A stretch of 25,283 nt of DNA, from the IMG/VR virus record IMGVR_UViG_2597490260_000006, one strand, 5' to 3'. The position numbers were made by a program, and so were the translations under genes. This DNA is from a virus (Duplodnaviria; Heunggongvirae; Uroviricota; Caudoviricetes). The notes below the pieces were generated by a model. It saw only the letters and a program-made list of their open reading frames with translations. It had not been told where the DNA came from and searched no databases. Shown here in pieces: positions 1 to 21,880 of the stretch (its first letter is position 1; each line of letters starts with the position of its first letter).

Positions 1-844
1 TGTTTATCACTGGCGACCTGAACCACATCGTCACCAATAGCTATTTTTTTATAGCCCGGAGAAAAACCCGCAATCATATCCAGTGAATCGTTAAACGGTA
101 TCCACACATCAGGCAGCGGCGGCACTATATTCGCATAGGGCTCTGCAGTCACTTCCGCTGCGGCTTCTGCGCGGTCTGCCGCCTTTTCAGCTCGTGTCGC
201 TGCCGACAGAGCCTCATCCTTTTTCTGCCCGGCCTTTGTTGCGTCTGCTGCAGCCTCCCGCGCTTTTGTGGTGGCGACTCCGGCATTTTCAGCGGCTGAC
301 TCTGCATTACGGCGGGAAGCCTCTTCACTGTCTGCGGAGGCTTCTTCTGACGCACGGGCATTTGTCTCTGAACGTTCTGCCGCTGTTGCTGCGTTTTGTG
401 CGGCTGTTTTTGAANNNNNNNNNNGTTCCTGGACGATGCCGCTGCTGTTTCTGATTTCTTTGCTGCCGCTGCGCTCTGAGAGGCGGCTTCAGCGTTGCGT
501 GCCACATCCTCCACCATTTCCTGAAAACGGCGCAATGCCTCCGGCATGACATCATCTTCCGTCATGGCACCGAGAAAATCATTCAGCGTCCCCGGACTGG
601 AACCTTCATAGACGGTAATGGTCCCAACATGTGATGGCTGAGAACCCTCAATCCACAGGATGACGCTGTACTGACCATACTCAACGTCCATACTGTAACG
701 CCCGGCTTCATCAGGATTTTCAGAGGCCACCGTGTTCACCAGTACCGTGGTGCTGTTACGCTTTGCCTTCAGTTGAATAGTGCAGTTCTGTATTGGTTTT
801 CCCGCACCATCTTTCAGCACACCTGAGATTTTTACTGCTGCCAT
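1..844 (-). CDS. stf: Side tail fibre protein Stf, 5' portion (partial, continues beyond window start; interrupted by N-run)
   Basis: Translation from the ATG at 844 (MAAVKISGVLKDGAGKPIQNCTIQLKAKRNSTT...) matches the recalled lambda Stf N-terminus. The track ORF begins at a GTG at 850, but the ATG at 844 has a GGAG 5 nt upstream. After the N-run the track ORF continues in a low-complexity frame; my manual translation shows the Ala/Glu/Ser-rich Stf-like frame starts at 413 and stays open to position 1. Confidence 0.8.
415..424. other. Run of 10 ambiguous bases (assembly gap or masked bases) inside stf
   Basis: Literal n characters at 415-424; the stf reading frame changes phase across it, so true gap length is unknown. 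Confidence 0.95.
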
Positions 845-7665: not shown

Positions 7666-10600
7666 TACCGATATGCTCCACTTAACCGACCACCATCACG
7701 GGCCTGCTGTTGCATAAAGTCCGCTGCCGCTTTTTTCCCAAGGTCATAAACCACCTTCAGGGCAGCAGGACCTATCTGCCCGTTCGTGCCATCGTTATTG
7801 ATCTCGATGTTGTACTGCGGGGCAAACATCGCCATACCTGAACCACCAATATCCGCCACAACCCCCAGCTTACCGTCAGCACCACGACGCAGTGGCAGAA
7901 TGGCTTCAGGTCCAGCTTCCCCCATCACACCCGCGCCTTTTGCAAAAGCAAAAAACGTCGGACGGTTAACCACCGTGCCACTGTAGCGACTCAAATCAGC
8001 CGACTGATAAACACCGCCATCAGCATTGGCTACAAAATCAAAAGGCAGCGCGGAAGCAATGCCTTTTACCGCTTTCATTAAAGCTATCTGAGCCATGATT
8101 CTGGACATATCTGACAGCACAGAAGAGGTGAAGGATTTGAAATTGAGTTTGCCTGTAGTACAGAATGTCGCCAGCCAGTCACTCATGCTACTGAACGCAG
8201 ACGTGAACAACTGTTCCACTGTCCCGGCTGTGTTATCCGCATTCTCAGTGACATTCTGGAGTGCACGCAGGACTCCGTTTTTCCAATTACCCTGAGCAAT
8301 TTCAAGCCGTTGCCAGTAACGGCGATTCTCATTCAGTTGTCGGTTCAGACTCTCCGTCAGCGCCTGCTCGGCCTTTCTGTAGTCATCCGTGTTATATGTC
8401 CCTTTCTGCTCACTATCCCGCCTCAACTGCTCCAGCTGTTGCTGGTATTTCTGGCGAAGACTCAGTTGTACCTGATATCGCTGCCGCTGCTGATCACCCA
8501 TACCCACCGTGGCGATATCCAGGTCATGTTGCTGACGCTGAGCGCGCTCTTCTTCAGCCAGTTGACTGGTCAGCTGAATTGTTTTTTTCTTCAGATCGTT
8601 GAGTGCCGTCTGTTTCTGAAGCTCCTGCTGTTTTACATCCAGCAGCGTCAGTGCCTGAATCAGTTCATCTTTACGGGCCAGCACACTCTTTTCATCTGCC
8701 GTCAGTTTTTTCCCGTCCAGATCGCTGATGCGCTGCTGCAGAGCCAGAAGCTGTTTATGCGCTTCTGTCATCTTTTCAGTGGCAATGCCTGCTGACTGTC
8801 TTGCAGCAGCAATCTGTCCTTCCACCTGTGCCTGTTGCTGACTGTACTGCAGCAATAACCGGGTGGCCTCATCATTACGGGTTTCGCGTGTTTTTTTCTT
8901 ACCGGATGCCAGGGCTTTCTCGTAACGTTCATTTTCACGTTGTATCGCCGCATCCCTGACAGCCTGATCGGCGTACTGCATGGCATTAATACGCGCAATT
9001 TCACGCTGATGTCGTGCAGCTTCCGTTTCATTCATCCGGTTCAGTGCAGCATTTTCAGCATTACGGCGTTTCTGTTGCTCCTGATAATTCCGCTCTGCCT
9101 GCTCTTTTGCATCCTGCAAATCCTTCTGGCGTTTTTTCTCCTGAAGATCGTTAAGACGCTGCTGATCGTATTCAACCTGAGAAGATGATGCCGTCCAGGG
9201 GAGTCTTTTCGCCCGCGACACTTTCTCCTGCAAAGTGGCAATCTGCGCATCCAGCGAATCTTCACGACCAATATTCATGGCCGCATCCCAGAACTGCTTC
9301 CACCAGTCAGACAAAGTTTGCAGCGTACTGCCCAGCGCATTGAGGTTATTATCAATATCCGCAGTACGCCGACCGGTTTCCTCTGCCAGTGCAGACATGG
9401 CTATCCGTGCCGCATCACTGGACCGCCCCTGCTCTCCAAGGACGCGTATCTGCTCAAGCTGAGTGGCAGTAAGAAAATGCAGCTCATTGTCCAGAGACTT
9501 CGCGGCATTTACAGGATCATCCTTCAGCCGCTTAAACTGATTTATGGTATCGCTGACCGACTGGCCAACCGATCGCTCCATCTGTGCGGCAGCTCTCGCC
9601 ACCATACCGATATCGTTTCCACGAAATGCACCACTCCCCACCACCTGAGCCAGCGCACCGGCTGCAGCATGTTGCGTGATACCATTCCCGGAAATAGCAC
9701 GACTGAGCGTCCACAGCTGCCCGGCAGTGACTCCGGCATAATGCCCCGTCAGCGACAGCTGGCGGTTAAATTCTTCCCCCTCCTTCTGACCGTCATACCA
9801 GGCTTTACCCAGGCCATAGACAGCCGCGGCAATACCGCCAATAACCCCGCCAAGCATCATGCCTTTCGGTGACATCAATGTGTCTATCCACCCGGCACGG
9901 TTAGCCAGCGTTATTCCGGATCCCCTCAGCGCACCTAAATTTCCGCGGGCCAGTTCACCTATCAGAACGCCTATCTCCTGACGGGCCGCTGCACTTTTCA
10001 GCCCCAGCGAATGCGTGGCTTTTCCTGCCTGCTCCATTTTGCGGATATACACTTCTGCAGCACTGCTTACCCCCAGCTGGGCAGCCTTGGCACGAAGCAA
10101 CTCAGAAGAAGAAAGATTCTGGCGGGTTGCCTGCTCTTTAAGCTGACGGATAAACGCCACTTTCTGTCGGGTAGCCTCTTCCTCAGCCTGTGTAAGAACA
10201 CGGGTTTTCGCCGTAACCTCAGAAATCAGCGCCAGATAATCCTGCTGACCAATCCCGCCACTGTTTCTGGCCTGTCGGATCTGCTGCTGAATACGCTGTA
10301 ATTCCTGCAGACCCGCACTGGCCTGTTTCACACTGTCAATCTGACGATAAAACGCAGCAGCCGCTTTATCCTGAGCCTCCGCCAGAGCCATGGCCTGCGC
10401 CTGTTCCTCGCGCATTTTCTGGCTCAGCGCCTCCATACGCTGGCGGGTTTTCTCCACCTCGCGGGCCATGCGTTCATGAGCCTGTGCGTTCTTCTCCACC
10501 GTCTGCGCATGGACGGATGCGGCTGTTGCAGCCGAAGACGCCGCCTGCGTTGTCTGCCGGGCGGCCTGAGTCTGACGCTCCATAAAACGCTGCATACGGG

Positions 10601-13897: not shown

Positions 13898-15856
13898 TTA
13901 CGCCGTACATTTCACCAGACCGCGGTGATCAACTGGCGCGACACCGGCGTCAATACGCACTTTCGTTGTCACGCCATCCACACTGAAGCCCTCCATCTGA
14001 TCAATATATGGCGTATCCACACCGTTGAGATAAGCCACTTCAATCGTATCGGAGCCTTTGGACGCAGCCAGGTAGAAAGTGGTCTGGCTGTTATCATCAA
14101 GACGAGGCTCTGCAATAACGGTCGCAAAATCTTTCACCGGGTTAATAATACCGGCGTTAATGTCAGCCCCCTTGACACTTGAGGAGCGAATGACCTGGTT
14201 AGCAACAGACTCCATCGCCGTCGGTACCAGTACGAACGCAGGACGAATATTCAGATGACGCTCCCCCTCTTTCTGAACGCGCATCAACTGGCGGGCTTTA
14301 TCCAGCGATGCCACGTCCATTGCAGCGCTCTCCAGTACGTTTGCATGTTTCGCTTTATCGAACAGACTTACATTATCTGTGGAGATTTTCGGGTTAGACG
14401 TCAGAATGGCATAAACCAGATCGGCAATAGTGGATTTCGCCGCACGGCCCAGTTTCATCGGGACATCGGTCAGCATATTCAGATCATCATTGATAATGGC
14501 CTGACGGGTGATACTGAACAGCTCGCCATAGGTCGCCAGTGCAATAGTGGCCTGTTTATCTCCGGTGGTGACGTATTTATATTCCGCCCCTTCACGCACC
14601 TTACGCAGAGCACTGAAGCCCCCCATACCCACACGATGGGCAATTTTAAAATCAGACAACTGACCTTTCCGCGTCCACTGTTCATAGGTTTCAGGGGCAT
14701 CTTCCCAGCCCTGCAGAATGGCTTTGTTCGCAACATCCAGCAGAATATTACCGAAGTCAGACGTACTGTGTGTGAACGCCGCACCGACCATCTGCATCGG
14801 GTTATAACTGGAAACACCAATACCCCGTTCAGTCAGTGACATACGGGCATATTCACGCAGAGTCATCCCGTTGTAGACATTATCACGTTCGGTTTTTTCA
14901 AATCCGGCACGCGCCATCAGCGCCTGGCGGATCCCGTCCCCCACAAAATTACCGTTACCGGCATAAATATGAGCCGGGGTATTTTTATTGGATGGCGTGG
15001 ACTCGCGCCCCATCTCGTTCAACAGCTTTTCGCGGGCCTGCTCCAGCGAACATTCAGGATCGGCAAGGCACTGAGCCTGCAGCGTCTGATAACGCCCGCC
15101 AAACATGGCAAACAGATCATTAATACCGTTTACACGCGCTTTTTGCTCTGCCAGTACCTGCGCACGGATACTGTTTTCATCCAGCACGGGTGCTGCTGCC
15201 TGCACTGGCGTCCGGGAGGCTGCAGGTTCATTATCCTGTACGCGTGGAGCACTGTTACGTGGCGGAGTAATCATGTTTCGAATGGATTCCGGCATCTTTT
15301 TAAATTCCTCTGTACGTTTTGACTGAATACATGCCATTGCCTTAACGGCTGGCGTCACCTGATCAGCAAATCCCTGTGCCAGACATTCGGCACCGGACAT
15401 CCAGGTCTCATCCGCCAGCATGGCAGCAATTTCATCGGTGGTTTTCCCGGTTTTCTGTGCATAAGCGGGTAACAGAACCGCCTCAACTTTATCGAGCAGG
15501 TCGGCATAGGTGCGCATGTCCTCCGCATCACCGCCCGTAAAGCCAAATGGTTTATGAATCATCATGAAGGTGTTTTCCGGCATAATGACCGGGTTTCCCA
15601 CCATCGCAATGACCGACGCCATTGACGCCGCCACACCGTCGACATAAACGGTAATGGACGCACCATGTGTTTTCAGTGCATTAAAAATGGCGATGCCTTC
15701 AAAGACATCGCCACCCGGTGAATTGATATGGAGATTAATGTGGGTGATATCGCCCAGTGCATTCAGATCACTGATAAACTGCTTCGCCGTAACACCCCAG
15801 AAACCAATCTCGTCATAAATATAAATATCCGCATCACTCTGGTGACCAGCCTGCAT
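13898..15856 (-). CDS. Fused prohead protease (ClpP-like) - scaffold - major capsid protein
   Basis: Start placed at the first ATG after the portal stop (MQAGHQSDADIYIYDEIGFWG...), about 652 aa. N-terminal region has ClpP-type motifs (HINSPGGDVFEG, AASMASVIA, MMIHKP). It is followed by a Gln/Ala/Glu-rich linker and a long C-terminal domain in the position and size of a major capsid protein. Confidence 0.75.
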   Translation of the reverse strand: MQAGHQSDADIYIYDEIGFWGVTAKQFISDLNALGDITHINLHINSPGGDVFEGIAIFNALKTHGASITVYVDGVAASMASVIAMVGNPVIMPENTFMMIHKPFGFTGGDAEDMRTYADLLDKVEAVLLPAYAQKTGKTTDEIAAMLADETWMSGAECLAQGFADQVTPAVKAMACIQSKRTEEFKKMPESIRNMITPPRNSAPRVQDNEPAASRTPVQAAAPVLDENSIRAQVLAEQKARVNGINDLFAMFGGRYQTLQAQCLADPECSLEQAREKLLNEMGRESTPSNKNTPAHIYAGNGNFVGDGIRQALMARAGFEKTERDNVYNGMTLREYARMSLTERGIGVSSYNPMQMVGAAFTHSTSDFGNILLDVANKAILQGWEDAPETYEQWTRKGQLSDFKIAHRVGMGGFSALRKVREGAEYKYVTTGDKQATIALATYGELFSITRQAIINDDLNMLTDVPMKLGRAAKSTIADLVYAILTSNPKISTDNVSLFDKAKHANVLESAAMDVASLDKARQLMRVQKEGERHLNIRPAFVLVPTAMESVANQVIRSSSVKGADINAGIINPVKDFATVIAEPRLDDNSQTTFYLAASKGSDTIEVAYLNGVDTPYIDQMEGFSVDGVTTKVRIDAGVAPVDHRGLVKCTA

Positions 15857-15869
15857 CCTGAACCAGGAA

Positions 15870-17378
15870 TTATTCTTCGGACTGGTTGTTGGTGTGCTGC
15901 GGCTCCTGTCGTTTCGTTGCGGCACTGCTGCCTCCTTTATCACTGGCCGGATCGGTATCAAATACCAGATCCAGCTTGCGGTTTTCATCAATTTCGGCCT
16001 TGCGCCGACGTTTGACATCATCCGGATTACGACCACCAGCACGTACCCAGTCTGATTCTGTCGCCGCTCCACCACGAATCTGGATTTTCCAGGCCTCAGC
16101 CTCCTTAACAGGGTCAATCCACGGCATCACCGGTCCGGAATACACCGCGGTATACAGTGAAGAACGGTCAAGATCGCGGGGTAGCCTGATAACACCGGAT
16201 GCCACAGCCTGTTTCAGCCAGGCACGGTACATCGGGCGGGTGACGGCACCAATAAACCAGTCCTGCAGGATCAGGTAGCCATCAGTGGATTCAACCAGCT
16301 CCTGACGCTGGGCGCTGTAAGTGCCGTTATAGTTGCGCGCTGTACTGGAAAAACTCAGACGACTGCCAGCCGCCACGGCACGCAACTGACCATTACGAAA
16401 AGTTTCAAGGTTAGGATTGGGACGATCCGACTTCACCATTCCGATTTCTTCGCCGGGTTTCAGATCGTCGTAAATAATGCCTGGCTGAATGGTAAGCTCG
16501 CGTTCATTCTCCTTGCTGTCATTACCATCCGTTTCATAGCTCTGTCCGTCGCCTTTCCGGATGTACATCCCCAGAGCAGCGGCGATCCTTGCTGCAGTCA
16601 GCTCAGAATCTTCATACTCTTTCAGGGCGCTGAGGCGGATCAGCACACCGGACAATAAAGACGTCCCGCGCATCTGGTGCAGACGGCGAACAAATTTAAG
16701 ATGCAGCATTCGCTCTGCATCCACTTCTTTGGTTTCCATCTGCCGTCCGGATACAGGACGACTTTTATACACCAGATATTTTTCGGGACGCCCCCAGTCA
16801 TCAACAAACACGCCCTGATTCAGCCTGTTGCTCTCATCACTGGTCATGGGAATAAAGTCCGGCTCGAGCGCCTCCAGCCAGAAATGAACACCGGCAGAAG
16901 GCGTCAGGCTGTTTATGCGCCCGGAAACCATCTGGGCAAACACCTCACCATCGCGCAGCCAGGTACGCAGCATCAGACGTTCCAGCATCGGACGGGTAAA
17001 CTGCCCGGTGACTTCCGGACTGACAGACCATTCACTCCATCGGGTACGTATCTCCGCTGCCAGGTCACGGGCAATGGCACCATTGCGTAATACCGGATGT
17101 GGCTCGACAATAATCCCGTTTTTCCCCACCACCCGTTCTTCCAGCTTGTCAAATACACCAATGACCAGATCGTGGTTGTTATCAAGGTAACGGGCCTGCT
17201 CACGTAACGACACGGCCCCGTACTGGCTTAACTGGTCGGCAGTTCGGTTCTCCCGTCGGGCTTTGTGTGTCCGCGTCGTTTTTACGGCCTCATAAGCTTG
17301 GATCACCGCTCGGGAACGCAGCCTTGCCGCTTTCCATCCTGGTGAAAAAACGCCAATCACATCATCAAGAATTGCCAT
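15870..17378 (-). CDS. Portal protein
   Basis: Start placed at the ATG at 17378 (MAILDDVIGVFSPGWKAARLRS...), which shares one base with the W-like stop (TGATG) and has GAGG 5 nt upstream. About 502 aa between the W-like gene and the protease-capsid gene. Confidence 0.8.
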   Translation of the reverse strand: MAILDDVIGVFSPGWKAARLRSRAVIQAYEAVKTTRTHKARRENRTADQLSQYGAVSLREQARYLDNNHDLVIGVFDKLEERVVGKNGIIVEPHPVLRNGAIARDLAAEIRTRWSEWSVSPEVTGQFTRPMLERLMLRTWLRDGEVFAQMVSGRINSLTPSAGVHFWLEALEPDFIPMTSDESNRLNQGVFVDDWGRPEKYLVYKSRPVSGRQMETKEVDAERMLHLKFVRRLHQMRGTSLLSGVLIRLSALKEYEDSELTAARIAAALGMYIRKGDGQSYETDGNDSKENERELTIQPGIIYDDLKPGEEIGMVKSDRPNPNLETFRNGQLRAVAAGSRLSFSSTARNYNGTYSAQRQELVESTDGYLILQDWFIGAVTRPMYRAWLKQAVASGVIRLPRDLDRSSLYTAVYSGPVMPWIDPVKEAEAWKIQIRGGAATESDWVRAGGRNPDDVKRRRKAEIDENRKLDLVFDTDPASDKGGSSAATKRQEPQHTNNQSEE

Positions 17379-17596: not shown

Positions 17597-19689
17597 CCTC
17601 CGGAAGTCAGCCAGGGGTTAACATCGTCAGTTACTGTTTTCTTCCGTTTTTGTTTTTTAACAGGCGTGGATACCGGTTCCGGTGTGGGTGACGGTTCGGT
17701 ACTGTCCGGGACACACTCCAGCCAGGTTTCCCGGCTCGCCCACTCCGGTGCATCCGGCCAGCGGATCTTTTCGTATCCATGCAGAATGACCAGAGCCTCG
17801 GCATACACCATCAGGTCAAAAGCTTCGTTGGCACCGCGACCCGGCTTACTCCATTTCCCGTCACTGCTCCGCTCTTCATACGTCAGTTCGTCGTAAAACC
17901 AGCTCCCCAGCCAGTCAGGGAAATGCACATAGCCGGGACCTGGCGAGTCACGCCATAACGCGTTATTCACCCGGTCTTTCAGGGCATCCGTCTGAAGAAG
18001 CCAGAGCGGTACATCACCTGCGGCCTGCGCCCGTCGGCCCGTTCGTCCGGTGTTATCAGGGAATGTACGGGTGATCAGTTTTGCGCGCCGGATGCTGTCG
18101 CCCTTAAACAGGTAAATACGTTTACCAAGGCCATCACGACGGCAACGACGCCAGAATTTATAGGCATTATCAGTGACCCCGTCTTCACCGCCGGAGTCCA
18201 CCGCCATTGCCATCAGTCGCATTTGTTGAGAAGGATCGGAGGCCAGCGGCCAGCTTTTATGAAAAACATCCGTCAGCAGGACATCCCAGTCTTCCGGATA
18301 GCTGGCCGGATCAATTCGCTGGCTCTCCCCGTCGCTGTCACCGCGCAATGACTGCGTGATGTTGTAACGATCAATAATCCAGCGTTCGCCACGGCTGCCA
18401 TAGCCCGTTACCTGAACCACAAAACGGCGATGAAGTCCCGCCTGCACATCCACTGTCGCCACAAGGAAATTAACGCCATCCGGAACACTGCGGGAAGGAA
18501 CTGGCTCTGCCCGCTGCTCAAGCAATTCACTTTTTCGTTGCTCCATGCTGGCGCGGGGAAGATAAGGTAATCCCCAGTCGGTATTGATAACCGTCTTGAG
18601 TGTCTCTTCACTTCCGGTTGTCTCGTATTCCTGTTCTGCAGTAAGCAGTTTGTAAACGAGTTGCGAGAGTGTCTGATAAGCAGCTGCCGGCCCCTCCATC
18701 CAGAATGACGCAATACGTGAACGCCGGGGATCACCATAACGACTGCCATCTGCATTGATGGATTCACCATCCCGTAACCAGACCCCACGTCCGTTCAGCT
18801 CGCGTTTTTGTTCAGGCAAAATCCGTCCTGAACAGGAAGGACACTGAATATAAGCCGCCTCACTTGCCAGCACAGGATCGGCAATATCACGGAAACCAGC
18901 AACCACATCGCCGCAGGGCTGAAAATACTCACCACAGTGTGGACAGGGCCAGTACCAGCGACGGCGATCGCCACGGTTATAGAGCGACAGGATCCCCGTG
19001 GTTGGTGGAGCCTCATGCGGTGAAGTCCGTCGCCATTTCACATCCTTCACATCCCTGCCGGGGGAACTCTCCACCAGCGTCATACCACTGGACATAAATG
19101 TGGTGGTACGTTTTGAGGCAAGAGAGAAGGCATCCCCCTCACCATCAATATCTTCCGGAAAACGGTCATAATCCGTCAGCGCCACGCATTTATAATCTGA
19201 TGAAGACATGATATTGACTGACGGCCAGCCGATTTTCAGGTAGTTGCCAGCAAGGAATGTTCTGTCATAAACGTTGTTGTCATTTTTGTTCGGACTCAGG
19301 CGACTGACCACTTCCGGGCTGACGCGAAACGTTCTGGCGAGTCGTTTTTTGGAGTGTTCGCGGGCTTTTTCCTCCGTCATCTGAATGATCAGCATATCAG
19401 CAGGATCGCAAATCACGTTGTAAATCACCCAGCCGTCAATCAGGCCGATAGTCTTGCCGGTTCGTGCCGGGCCAACAAATATCACTGCGTCGTATTCACG
19501 CGAGGCCAGGCAGTTCATAGGCTCAATAACATACGGTGCCACCAGCGGATCCCACGGGACTGAGTTCCCTGCCCCCATGGGCACCCGCATATACTGAGCA
19601 ACGGCATCAGCAACCCGCATTCGTCTCGGTGCGCGAAGGATATAACCTGAATCGGTTCGTGCTGCCTTTGCGGTTTCCTGATTCAGCAT
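17587..19689 (-). CDS. Terminase large subunit (GpA-like)
   Basis: 700 aa; Walker A-like VGPARTGKT near the N-terminus; Cys pairs CPHCG...CPSC; start codon overlaps the stop of the upstream small-subunit gene. Confidence 0.85.
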   Translation of the reverse strand: MLNQETAKAARTDSGYILRAPRRMRVADAVAQYMRVPMGAGNSVPWDPLVAPYVIEPMNCLASREYDAVIFVGPARTGKTIGLIDGWVIYNVICDPADMLIIQMTEEKAREHSKKRLARTFRVSPEVVSRLSPNKNDNNVYDRTFLAGNYLKIGWPSVNIMSSSDYKCVALTDYDRFPEDIDGEGDAFSLASKRTTTFMSSGMTLVESSPGRDVKDVKWRRTSPHEAPPTTGILSLYNRGDRRRWYWPCPHCGEYFQPCGDVVAGFRDIADPVLASEAAYIQCPSCSGRILPEQKRELNGRGVWLRDGESINADGSRYGDPRRSRIASFWMEGPAAAYQTLSQLVYKLLTAEQEYETTGSEETLKTVINTDWGLPYLPRASMEQRKSELLEQRAEPVPSRSVPDGVNFLVATVDVQAGLHRRFVVQVTGYGSRGERWIIDRYNITQSLRGDSDGESQRIDPASYPEDWDVLLTDVFHKSWPLASDPSQQMRLMAMAVDSGGEDGVTDNAYKFWRRCRRDGLGKRIYLFKGDSIRRAKLITRTFPDNTGRTGRRAQAAGDVPLWLLQTDALKDRVNNALWRDSPGPGYVHFPDWLGSWFYDELTYEERSSDGKWSKPGRGANEAFDLMVYAEALVILHGYEKIRWPDAPEWASRETWLECVPDSTEPSPTPEPVSTPVKKQKRKKTVTDDVNPWLTSGGWL

Positions 19690-20180
19690 TACTCCTCCTG
19701 CTGTAATTCCTCCTCATCATCCGCACCTGCTTCGGTCACCCGCAGGGCTATCTGATCGCGCAGATCATCAATAATGGACTGAACACGGCTCACAGCGGCA
19801 GGCTGCAGGCCGCAGTCACGTTCCAGAATATCCGGTAATGTCTCCAGCACCTGCACGACCGCTTTTGCCCAGATGGCAAACTCCCGTCTGACATCACTGG
19901 CCGGAATGAGTTGTGCCGTTTCCTGTTCGAACTTAAGACGCTCACGTTCAGACTGATACCAGGCTTTGCGTTCATGTGGATCCATTTCGCCCTCAGCAAC
20001 CGGCGGTGGTAACCCCATAAATTCAGTCAGAATATCGGTCAACCGGTATAGCTTGAGTTTGTCATGTCCACCAGCGGGACGAATGTTTTTCAGTCTTGCC
20101 ACGACAGTCTGGCGGTGCAGACCAGATAAAGCCGCCAGTTGATTAATATTCAGCATCAGGTTTTTCAACTCATGATCCAT
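19689..20180 (-). CDS. Terminase small subunit (Nu1-like)
   Basis: 163 aa; N-terminal helix-turn-helix-like segment LNINQLAALSGLHRQTVVARLKN; acidic C-terminus; GGAGG upstream of the ATG; sits directly upstream of the large subunit and downstream of the candidate cos site. Confidence 0.75.
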   Translation of the reverse strand: MDHELKNLMLNINQLAALSGLHRQTVVARLKNIRPAGGHDKLKLYRLTDILTEFMGLPPPVAEGEMDPHERKAWYQSERERLKFEQETAQLIPASDVRREFAIWAKAVVQVLETLPDILERDCGLQPAAVSRVQSIIDDLRDQIALRVTEAGADDEEELQQEE

Positions 20181-20210
20181 ATTTCCTCCGGAGAGCTTTA
20201 AACATGCATC

Positions 20211-20280
20211 GTGCGAACAACTTTAAGAAAACGCGTTCGATGTCGAACAAAAAACACTCAATTCGACATGCAAAAAACAA
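20211..20280. promoter_or_regulatory. Repeated TCGAAC-containing motifs upstream of the terminase small subunit gene (candidate cosB-type binding sites)
   Basis: Within 100 bp of the Nu1-like start: CGAACAA (20214-20220), near-palindrome GTTCGA-TG-TCGAAC (20235-20248), TCGAACAAAAAAC and TTCGACATGCAAAAAAC. Function as terminase-binding sites is inference. Confidence 0.4.
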
Positions 20281-20344
20281 ATAACCATTAATAATCAATA
20301 AGATGCAAAGATGATGGTGGCCAATAAAAATGCAAAAACTAGCC

Positions 20345-20370
20345 TTTTTCCGCGACGCTCCCGCCCCGTG
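20345..20370. other. Candidate cosN (cohesive end site)
   Basis: Late-strand sequence GGGGCGGGAGCGTCGCGG resembles the recalled lambda left end GGGCGGCGACCTCGCGG (shared GGGCGG and TCGCGG flanks), about 170 bp upstream of the Nu1-like start, comparable to the lambda spacing. Confidence 0.45.
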
Positions 20371-20817
20371 GCAGGCCCCCCCACCGGGAGGACCCGTCAG
20401 CCTGACAGCCATAACGAACGTCTGATACAGCCCTTACATGAATGGCATCGGGATAATCCAGAAAGGAATAGCATCGACCCACAAGAATCTGTGTGAGTGT
20501 CCTGTTTCTTCCACCCCCGCACAGGACTGGCGAGCATGAGGGACAACCCCGCGAACCATAACCGCGCTGATGACAGGACTGGCCCGGCTTGTATTGCTTC
20601 CAGCCTTCGCTTTTGTGGCTTTTGCAATAGCCTGACGGATCTGTGGTGGTATTGCGGTAGCCGCGAACACGGCAGGTTTTTGGGGTTCGTGGGGGCATAT
20701 GTACTCCAATGAAGAAGCCACCAACATAGCCTCCTCCATTCATCGTGAAACTATTTTCATCTACCCAGTAATGAATTCTTTGAAGAGTTGTGATCAATAC
20801 AACTCGCTAATGGAGAG

Positions 20818-20841
20818 GCTTGTCTCACACGTGAGACAAGC
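20818..20841. repeat. 24-bp near-perfect palindrome (11-bp inverted repeat, 2-bp centre)
   Basis: GCTTGTCTCAC-AC-GTGAGACAAGC read directly from the sequence; about 80 bp upstream of the small plus-strand ORF. Confidence 0.9.
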
Positions 20842-20920
20842 TTCCTGTTTGATTTACTGGACAGTATAGGAGGACAGAATGCCTTCCTCACTCGAATAAC
20901 ATCAATTAAGGAGGTTCAAC

Positions 20921-21043
20921 ATGTTTCATTCCACAAGTCATCAGGCTGTAATTATGGCAGCATCAGTTTGTGCCACAGACCTTTTCCGCTTCACTTTGAG
21001 CCTGATTCATTTCTACCTGACCGGCTCGCCTCTATCTTTCTAA
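20921..21043 (+). CDS. Small ORF (40 aa) with strong ribosome-binding site, antisense to the late transcript
   Basis: AAGGAGG 7 nt upstream of the ATG; encodes MFHSTSHQAVIMAASVCATDLFRFTLSLIHFYLTGSPLSF. Below the ORF track size cutoff. No family recognised; coding status is unproven. Confidence 0.4.
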   Translation: MFHSTSHQAVIMAASVCATDLFRFTLSLIHFYLTGSPLSF

Positions 21044-21162
21044 TCCCCGATTAATCCAAATTTCACTGCCATAATGCCGACATTCTCTGCCATTGTTGGC
21101 TCCGTTTATCCGTTAAAAGGGATATCAGTTAAGTTATCCCGTGCAGGGTATAAGCCATTATC

Positions 21163-21192
21163 AAAGCCACTCTGTAGGGAGTGGCTTTTGTA
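21163..21192 (+). terminator. Plus-strand intrinsic terminator-like hairpin
   Basis: AAAGCCACU-CUGUAGGG-AGUGGCUUU followed by UG; about 120 nt downstream of the small plus-strand ORF. Confidence 0.4.
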
Positions 21193-21397
21193 ATGGCAAT
21201 AAAAAGCCCCGCGAATGCGAGGCTAAATCCTGGTATTTGTAATGACTGGCTCTTATCTCAACGCAGCCCCTTACCGCGCGCAAGATGCTCAATATCAAGC
21301 ATCAGCAATGAGATGTTTAATCTGGATTCACTCCAGAAGTGATCACCATCCTGTCTACAGAGCCAGATGTGAAGGATGATGAGTAAAATTATCGCTA

Positions 21398-21880
21398 TCA
21401 TCGAAGGCATTGCGTCCTGATGTATTCCTGAAGCGTTCTCAGTGCTGTTTGGTCGCGGATAATTCCGTCCCGGATACCGAGAACGTTTCGTCCAGCAACT
21501 GGAGAGAGTTCGACGGTGGCATCATTGCCCATGCCGGAGGCGCTGGAGGTTTCGGCTGAGGATGGCACAGGGCATTTTCCTTTGACGAACACCCGACCAC
21601 CATTATCAAGCTTGCGCCGAAGAGCATCATTTTTAGCTTTCGCATCAGCTAACTCCTTCGTGTATTTAGCATCGAGTGCATCAGCAGCACGCTGGCGCTG
21701 CTGCATGTCAGTAATGGTGGCGGTCGCCTGCTTCAGCTCACTGACTTTTTTATCACGCTGTTCTTTATAGGCGATGGCGTTATCACGGTAATGATTGACC
21801 GCCCACGACAGGCAGACGATGATGCAGATAACCAGAGCATAAATAATCGCGGCGACTCTGCTCACTGATCTATCCCCCAA
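21398..21880 (-). CDS. Rz: Rz i-spanin (inner membrane spanin subunit)
   Basis: 160 aa; N-terminal transmembrane segment ([20 protein letters not shown]) followed by a charged coiled-coil-like region; directly downstream of the endolysin gene and containing an embedded lipoprotein ORF. Confidence 0.85.
21439..21645 (-). CDS. Rz1: Rz1 o-spanin (outer membrane lipoprotein), embedded within Rz in another frame
   Basis: 68 aa; signal peptide with lipobox (LIMVVGCSS) followed by proline-rich mature sequence ([16 protein letters not shown]); entirely inside the Rz coordinates. Confidence 0.8.

Follow-up and report, generated by a model that had tools for sequence, protein, structure and literature searches.

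A probable lambda-type cos site with a divergent cosN core upstream of DUF1441 and gpA-family terminase genes in a lambdoid Escherichia coli prophage

Results

Gene order and features of the region

The window, that is, the whole 25,283-nucleotide stretch analysed here (IMG/VR record IMGVR_UViG_2597490260_000006), carries its late genes on the minus strand, where a Q antiterminator region, a DNA methyltransferase, a holin, a lysozyme and Rz follow one another from right to left. After a gap of ~1.08 kb come terS, terL, a lambda-family portal gene, a gene for a ClpP-protease/major-capsid fusion and the tail genes; terS, terL, the portal and the fusion are intact open reading frames. Several complete E. 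coli genomes contain chromosomal prophages that match the 4.5 kb around the putative packaging site with 100% identity, and related terminase regions were found in 3927 of 5426 complete genomes. We consider it very probable that positions 20181-20395, read on the minus (late) strand, constitute the cohesive-end site (cos) of a lambdoid E. coli prophage with head genes of the Gifsy-2/mEp460/PhiR40.1 type, with somewhat lower confidence in the exact ends and in the R-site assignments. The features are as follows.

20389..20395, minus strand: cosQ-like heptamer GGGTCCT, 22 nt upstream of the predicted first nick
20353..20368, minus strand: cosN, CG/GGGCGGGAGCGT/CG, placed by homology and the record ends of relatives
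20366..20355, minus strand: predicted 12-nt 5' cohesive end, in the lambda register
20367/20366 on the late strand and 20355/20354 on the opposite strand: predicted nicks
20334..20354, minus strand: I2-like spacer CGCGGAAAAAGGCTAGTTTTT (cos 13-33)
20310..20322, minus strand: R3-like box GGCCACCATCATC (cos 45-57), at the position of lambda R3 (cos 50-65), with the R3 motif element GCCACCATC at cos 46-54
20293..20305, plus strand: IHF-like site AATCAATAAGATG (cos 62-74), between R3 and R2 like lambda I1
20262..20270, motif on the plus strand, inverted relative to R3 and R1: R2-like element TTCGACATG (cos 97-105)
20239..20247, minus strand: R1-like element TTCGACATC (cos 120-128), 23 bp start to start from R2
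20197..20223, minus strand: conserved segment AAGTTGTTCGCACGATGCATGTTTAAA (cos 144-170)
19689..20180, minus strand: terS, DUF1441 small terminase subunit, 163 aa
17587..19689, minus strand: terL, large terminase subunit of the lambda gpA family, 700 aa, with ATPase and endonuclease domains

Several further observations concern the surroundings of the site. An 80-aa open reading frame (20170-20412, minus strand) crosses cos, its equivalents being mEp460_059 and PhiR40_1 XSB42407; GenBank "hypothetical proteins" annotated across the cos region overlap cosN, cosB and the terS start, and were probably called in error where the DNA is a packaging site without coding function. A promoter scan of 20100-21400 returned no sigma-70-like promoter. 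The gap between the lysis genes and cos contains a pseudogene remnant of an HNH endonuclease (50 codons, 20549-20698, minus strand); E. coli MS21324 has the identical prophage, in which RefSeq marks the gene as incomplete. An HNH gene next to the terminase genes is usual in HK97-type cos phages and not in lambda-type ones. Here the HNH gene persists only as a remnant and TerL belongs to the gpA family, a combination that departs from the HK97-type cos (3' overhang, HNH-assisted); the gpA-family TerL and the complete cosQ-cosN-cosB series likewise depart from headful (pac) packaging.

The prohead protease of ClpP type is fused to the major capsid protein (13898-16117, minus strand), as in Gifsy-2, and the head module is therefore unlike that of lambda, despite a lambda-family cos, TerL and portal. 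Gifsy-1 was considered as the closest published relative and rejected, since it has lambda/21-like head genes and is absent from the tblastn matches to TerS; Gifsy-2 and not Gifsy-1 is the related phage.

The cosN sequence follows the published rules for lambda-like cos sites

On the minus strand the region reads ...GACGGGTCCTCCCGGTGGGGGGGCCTGCCACG GGGCGGGAGCGT CGCGGAAAAAGGCTAGTTTTTGC..., with the layout GGGTCCT-22 nt-CACG/GGGCGGGAGCGT/CGCGG. The 18-mer GGGGCGGGAGCGTCGCGG occupies 20350-20367, and the 17-mer GGGCGGGAGCGTCGCGG occurs once in the window when up to 3 mismatches are allowed, with 0.06 matches expected in shuffled sequence and at least one match in 6 of 100 shuffles. We retrieved the lambda genome ends (...ACGGGTCCTTTCCGGTGATCCGACAGGTTACG / GGGCGGCGACCT / CGCGGGTTTTCG) and used the junction ...GGTTACG/GGGCGGCGACCT/CGCGGG as the alignment reference. 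Eight of the 12 bases of the predicted cohesive end are those of lambda (1-6, 10 and 12); the mismatches, at bp 7, 8, 9 and 11, all fall in the right half (bp 7-12), leaving the left half unchanged. CG stands beside both nicks and is followed by CGCGG, and the cosQ heptamer keeps its fixed distance from the nick (22 nt; 23 in lambda). The rotational symmetry of cosN amounts to 8/16 bp, versus 10/16 in lambda. Downstream, the I2-like spacer is similar to lambda CGCGGGTTTTCGCTATTTAT and is kept throughout the DUF1441/gpA terminase family.

Lambda-like phages have been defined by 12-nt 5' ends with identity to those of lambda (Feiss and colleagues; PMC4669245, PMC9026076). Natural cosN differences lie in bp 7-12, with the left half, the flanking CG and cosQ conserved (Feiss et al. 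2015, PMC4669245); N15 differs from lambda at positions 9 and 12, and Gifsy-1 at 8, 9 and 11 (PMC4669245). As predicted here, the cosN of the window obeys this right-half rule exactly, and we regard the region as a genuine lambda-type cos of a well-described kind, a natural variant within the published rules that calls for no changed concept. The exact 12-mer GGGCGGGAGCGT was absent from the searchable texts of papers, the one match being to a mammalian promoter and irrelevant; the survey of Vahanian et al. 2017 lies outside that search.

The preliminary description of this DNA had proposed, for 20211-20370, a cos with lambda-like cosN flanks and a divergent core, upstream of terminase genes and at a lambda-like distance from the small-subunit start. 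The proposal is borne out by the cosQ, spacing and nick-flank homology, and by the terS ATG lying at cos 187, against 191 for Nu1 in lambda. The lambda homology reaches further than that description saw: outside or unnoticed in its interval were cosQ (20389-20395), an R3-like box at 20310-20322 and, at 20293-20305, an IHF-like site.

Genome records of relatives break in a 12-nt register

In GenBank, phage cdtI (AB285204) and phage Tritos (OV696610, linear) open with GGGCGGGAGCGTCGCGGAAAAAGGCTAGTTTTT, the same sequence as in the window, and close with ...CCTGCCACG, such that both record starts coincide with the 12-mer GGGCGGGAGCGT; these record ends, too, favour the cos assignment. The linear record of Hafnia phage yong2, whose TerS is 63% identical, runs from CGCGGGAAACGG (CGCGGG) to ...GGGTCCT-22 nt-GAG GGGGCAGCGACA; its break thus coincides exactly with the predicted second nick. 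Phage LLS, a relative, has an annotated 12-nt 5' end, GGGCGGCGCGCT, in the same register; this mEp213/LLS end appears in the passage of a Genome Research 2025 article (PMC12315714) that cites Vahanian et al. 2017 and a personal communication from M. Feiss. The cdtI, Tritos, LLS and yong2 records thus all break in the 12-nt register, and dozens of enterobacterial relatives have a 12-mer of that same length. Lambda may have served as the model when the record ends of cdtI, Tritos and yong2 were chosen. Taken together, the three lines of record-end evidence agree and are indirect evidence for the predicted 12-nt 5'-protruding ends at this site.

It is decidedly unlikely, in our estimate, that the site is a cos whose nicks fall off the lambda register, giving a shorter or shifted overhang and an end other than GGGCGGGAGCGT. 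Such a shift has a precedent in Cr-LKS3, which combines a DUF1441 TerS (37% identical to that of the window) with a gpA-type TerL and has a measured overhang of 9 nt, GGGCTCGCG (PMC9303873); overhang length is therefore not fixed across the DUF1441 family. The linear record LR595868 (mEp460_4F5; L009:1-30) could be read in the same direction, as it starts 4 nt before the predicted nick and is missing 2 nt of the 12-mer (CCACGGGGCGGGAGCG--CGG), which an assembly error at a physical end of the DNA may explain. Against a shift, the CG flanks lie exactly 12 bp apart, as in lambda, four phage records break in the 12-nt register, and the 12-mer keeps its length in dozens of relatives. Contig ends in IMG/VR were also considered for mapping termini and were rejected, most matches being prophages inside isolate genomes.

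Conserved R-like elements and an IHF-like site in cosB

TCGAAC-containing repeats between cosN and the start codon had been put forward as small-subunit binding sites. Between cosN and the ATG the hexamer occurs once per strand (20243-20248, plus; 20235-20240, minus), with eight occurrences in the whole window, so this count is by itself weak evidence. The octamer TTCGACAT has two copies in the 25-kb window, which form a perfect 8-bp inverted pair ATGTCGAA/TTCGACAT at 20262-20269 and 20240-20247; an 8-bp inverted repeat within 220 bp is by itself not improbable. We compared 66 TerS-related loci from a one-genome-per-species collection. A 9-bp motif, (G/T)TC(A/G)NCAT(C/G), recurred at cos 44-50 (plus), 96-102 (minus) and 119-125 (plus) in ~25 prophages of Citrobacter, Klebsiella, Kosakonia, Enterobacter, Atlantibacter, Yokenella, Ewingella, Serratia and others. 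The R2-R1 spacing was 23 bp in every related locus with both elements. A (G/T)TCATCATC box stands at cos 44-50 in ~20 related prophages, other TerS subtypes having a different sequence there. In Gifsy-2, ...CACTG is found at cos 51, 97 and 122, the positions being kept and the sequence changed, and two loci with a different putative recognition helix (L172 and L177) carry GTGCAGC at cos 46 and 113.

A loose regular expression for the motif (BYCRHCATS), designed after the data had been seen, matched 33 times in the window against 24 +/- 5 expected; because the loose motif is common and was chosen in this way, we base the R assignment on the conservation of position. The order R3-I1-R2-R1 with R2 inverted, built from candidate sites recognised in the sequence and laid out identically in ~25 relatives, supports the interpretation of the three elements as equivalents of R3, R2 and R1 and as candidate TerS sites. 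The earlier proposal hence survives through this comparison of a 9-bp motif at three fixed positions, of which TCGAAC is only a part. TTTGCAT direct repeats were examined as R sites as well and rejected, since the mEp460 subtype is without them.

The IHF-like site AATCAATAAGATG differs from WATCAANNNNTTR by one mismatch. Twelve sites this good occur in the window, so that 0.09 would be expected per 190 bp, and a TTGAT core occupies the equivalent place in the cdtI, mEp460 and L177 types. Between R1 and the terS start lies a 57-bp segment (cos 129-186) that includes AAGTTGTTCGCACGATGCATGTTTAAA, which the window and mEp460 subtypes share and the shorter cosB of the LLS/mEp213 type lacks. The cosB regions of the window, mEp460 and Gifsy-2 types are all longer than the LLS/mEp213 type, in the window by 57 bp, and the extra segment carries a conserved AAAGTTGTTCGCA(C/A)GATGCATGTTTAAA.

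R1 itself lies within a local dyad, TGTTCGACATCGAACG (20234-20249, minus strand), followed by CGTTTTCTT. The TCGAAC/TTCGACAT repeats might act, in place of terminase sites, as a hairpin that controls the transcription or translation of terS; in one form of this explanation the dyad and its T-run look like a weak intrinsic terminator on the late transcript. A consensus scan did score 20249-20234 (minus strand) as terminator-like, with 6 pairs, 3 of them GC, and then the T-run, and Gifsy-2 has a similar local dyad, GTTCGACACTGAAC. The LLS/mEp213-type cosB, however, keeps the R2/R1 pair and its 23-bp spacing without the local dyad, and a third copy of the motif stands 70 bp upstream, at the R3 position. 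Moreover, the stem is short and weak, and the hairpin and terminase-site roles are not mutually exclusive. We therefore judge the hairpin explanation unlikely and retain the candidate TerS sites as the preferred reading. Two other, stronger terminator-like hairpins were observed nearby: one at 21205-21224 (minus strand), directly past the lysis cassette on the late strand, and a 13-pair stem at 20815-20844 (plus strand), on the opposite strand in the gap upstream of cos.

A gpA-family large subunit and a small subunit outside the Nu1 sequence family

The terminase proteins had also been described as not lambda-like, which holds for one subunit and fails for the other. TerL matches the Pfam families GpA_ATPase (PF05876, 1.6e-71) and GpA_nuclease (PF20454, 1.4e-85) and aligns with lambda gpA at 25% identity over 623 aa (E 9e-19); by these matches it is a distant member of the lambda gpA family, the family making 5' cohesive ends. 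TerS, in contrast, belongs to DUF1441 (4.6e-44): it had no match to a Nu1-family Pfam entry and no BLASTP alignment with lambda Nu1, and searches of the PDB with the TerS sequence or profile returned nothing significant.

A profile comparison with hhalign matched the TerS N-terminus (LNINQLAALSGLHRQTVVARL...GGHDKLKLY) with residues 2-52 of Nu1 (E 7e-4, probability 27%). The single-sequence AlphaFold model was poor (pLDDT 52.5), and a model built on 37 homologues (pLDDT 78.6) adopted a beta-alpha-alpha-beta-beta-alpha winged-helix topology. Foldseek matched the model to MerR-family regulators, RacA, BldC and one chain of 6HN7, the RppC-lambda TerS complex (PMC6739421). These models suggest that the TerS N-terminus is probably a Nu1-like winged helix-turn-helix and that TerS probably works like Nu1 while standing outside the Nu1 sequence family. 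Because cosB and TerS both differ from those of lambda, a packaging-initiation specificity distinct from that of lambda is plausible.

A common cosQ-cosN-I2 core joined to different cosB regions

We scanned IMG/VR for the 17-mer GGGCGGGAGCGTCGCGG and obtained at least 120 stretches, 6 of which were set aside as chance matches in GC-rich DNA without cosQ. GGGTCCT stood at -29 in 73 of the 81 distinct contexts with this cosN. At least 10 unrelated upstream sequences turn alignable exactly at cosQ, an onset of homology that looks like a functional module boundary and that lends further weight to the cos assignment. Downstream of a common core (cosQ, cosN and CGCGGAAAAAGGCTAGTTTTTG) stands either of two cosB regions that are unrelated to each other and are paired with different TerS subfamilies: 65 loci encode a TerS of 163/164 aa (window and mEp460 types), and 33 encode a TerS of 179 aa (cdtI/Tritos type), which is 42% identical. 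This pairing of a common cosN with different cosB/TerS sets parallels, by analogy, the relation between lambda and phage 21.

Three IMG/VR loci (L015, at 8231-8247 and downstream, L077 and L111) have the same cosQ-cosN and a cdtI-type cosB with no terS or terL after it; their next open reading frame, ~560 nt downstream, resembles a ClpP-type prohead protease. In L015, the terS-less cos lies 8.1 kb downstream of a normal cos with terS, in the same orientation. From their arrangement, these terS-less copies look like a satellite (PICI or helper-embedded) that carries the cos of the helper family.

Infectious relatives carry nearly the same cos

A prophage site could also be a relic in a defective element, or packaging could be headful without fixed ends here. 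Many E. coli prophages are defective, and the HNH pseudogene lies directly upstream of the site. PhiR40.1, PhiR47.1 and PhiR55.1, however, serve as infectious phages in a recent preprint (bioRxiv 10.1101/2025.11.03.685801); their TerS and that of the window are 99.4% identical, and the cos of the plaque-forming PhiR40.1 differs from that of the window by 2 substitutions, both outside every named element. A relic or headful explanation is thereby made unlikely, and we rate it as most improbable given, in addition, the intact terS, terL, portal and protease-capsid fusion, the intact cos elements and a TerL of the gpA (5'-cos) family, not a headful family.

Discussion

We propose that the region works as a lambda-type packaging site, in a scheme that takes from lambda the exact nick positions, TerS binding at the R elements, and what IHF and cosQ would do. 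TerS dimers would occupy R3 (GCCACCATC) and the inverted pair R2/R1 (TTCGACATG/TTCGACATC, 23 bp apart), with IHF probably bending the DNA between R3 and R2 and so aiding TerS, and the gpA-family TerL would thereby be anchored on cosN. TerL would then introduce two nicks separated by 12 bp, one in the late strand (CACG^GGGCGGGAGCGT) and one in the other (CCGCG^ACGCTCCCGCCC), to yield 5'-protruding ends GGGCGGGAGCGT; rejoined ends would give the junction CACGGGGCGGGAGCGTCGCGG. Packaging would proceed leftward in window coordinates, through terS, terL, the head genes and the tail genes, until it was ended by the reading of cosQ (GGGTCCT), cosN and the I2-like spacer in the following cos.

A known cos with likely ends would allow annotators to orient and delimit a very common E. 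coli prophage family, and its recognition would prevent spurious "hypothetical protein" calls over the site. It would also predict which prophages and satellites terminate on, or initiate at, one another's sites, and it supplies defined candidate binding sites for an uncharacterised DUF1441 small terminase.

More tentatively, and with rather more doubt than belief, we put forward a joint reading in which the cosQ-cosN-I2 core (end GGGCGGGAGCGT) is a common termination signal for several E. coli initiation specificities, combined with a mode of DNA recognition by DUF1441 proteins unlike that of Nu1. The specificities may include at least the window/PhiR40.1, mEp460 and cdtI types, together with the terS-less satellite-like elements with a cdtI-type cosB. 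Recognition could rely on a rigid R2/R1 inverted pair with invariant 23-bp spacing, and the 57-bp insertion (cos 129-186) could be an optional part with a regulatory role of its own. If the termination core is indeed common, prophages and satellites that reside together could end packaging at one another's cos sites and recombine across them.

Among known systems, lambda offers the closest plan. The cosQ heptamer GGGTCCT is identical, at 22 nt from the nick in the window and 23 nt in lambda; CG stands at both nicks exactly 12 bp apart; a T-rich I2-like spacer begins with CGCGG; the R3-like box, the IHF-like site, the inverted R2-like element and the R1-like element follow in the same order; the terS start lies at 187 (window) and 191 (lambda); and both have a gpA-family TerL and a lambda-family portal. 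In contrast, the R sequence of the window is TTCGACATC-like, whereas that of lambda contains CGTTTCC; the window TerS falls into Pfam DUF1441 without BLAST similarity to Nu1; the identity of TerL to gpA is only 25%; and the head is built on a ClpP-protease/capsid fusion. N15, phiD326 and Gifsy-1 likewise confine variation to bp 7-12 and keep the left half, the CG flanks and cosQ, but they have two or three changes against four in the window cosN, and Nu1-type TerS with lambda/21-like head genes in place of the DUF1441/Gifsy-2-like arrangement.

Phages cdtI and Tritos share with the window cosQ, the 12-mer and the next 21 nt without a difference, along with a gpA-family TerL and a DUF1441-family TerS; their TerS is, however, 42% identical and their cosB is unrelated from ~cos 40 onward, so that they probably represent a different initiation specificity on the same cosN, as in lambda versus phage 21. 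In mEp213/LLS, the TerS family is common to both (62% identity), as are cosQ and the I2-like spacer, and the R3/R2/R1 motif stands at cos 44, 98 and 121, versus 46, 97 and 120 in the window. The right half of the 12-mer differs there, and cosB is 57 bp shorter (ATG at 130 versus 187), as a result of which R1 overlaps the terS start codon. Finally, the cos sites of PICIs and helper-embedded satellites (Fillol-Salom 2019, PMC6739421; Feiss 2022, PMC9026076) resemble this family in joining a common cosQ-cosN to an exchangeable cosB, whereas the cos of the window precedes its own terS and terL.
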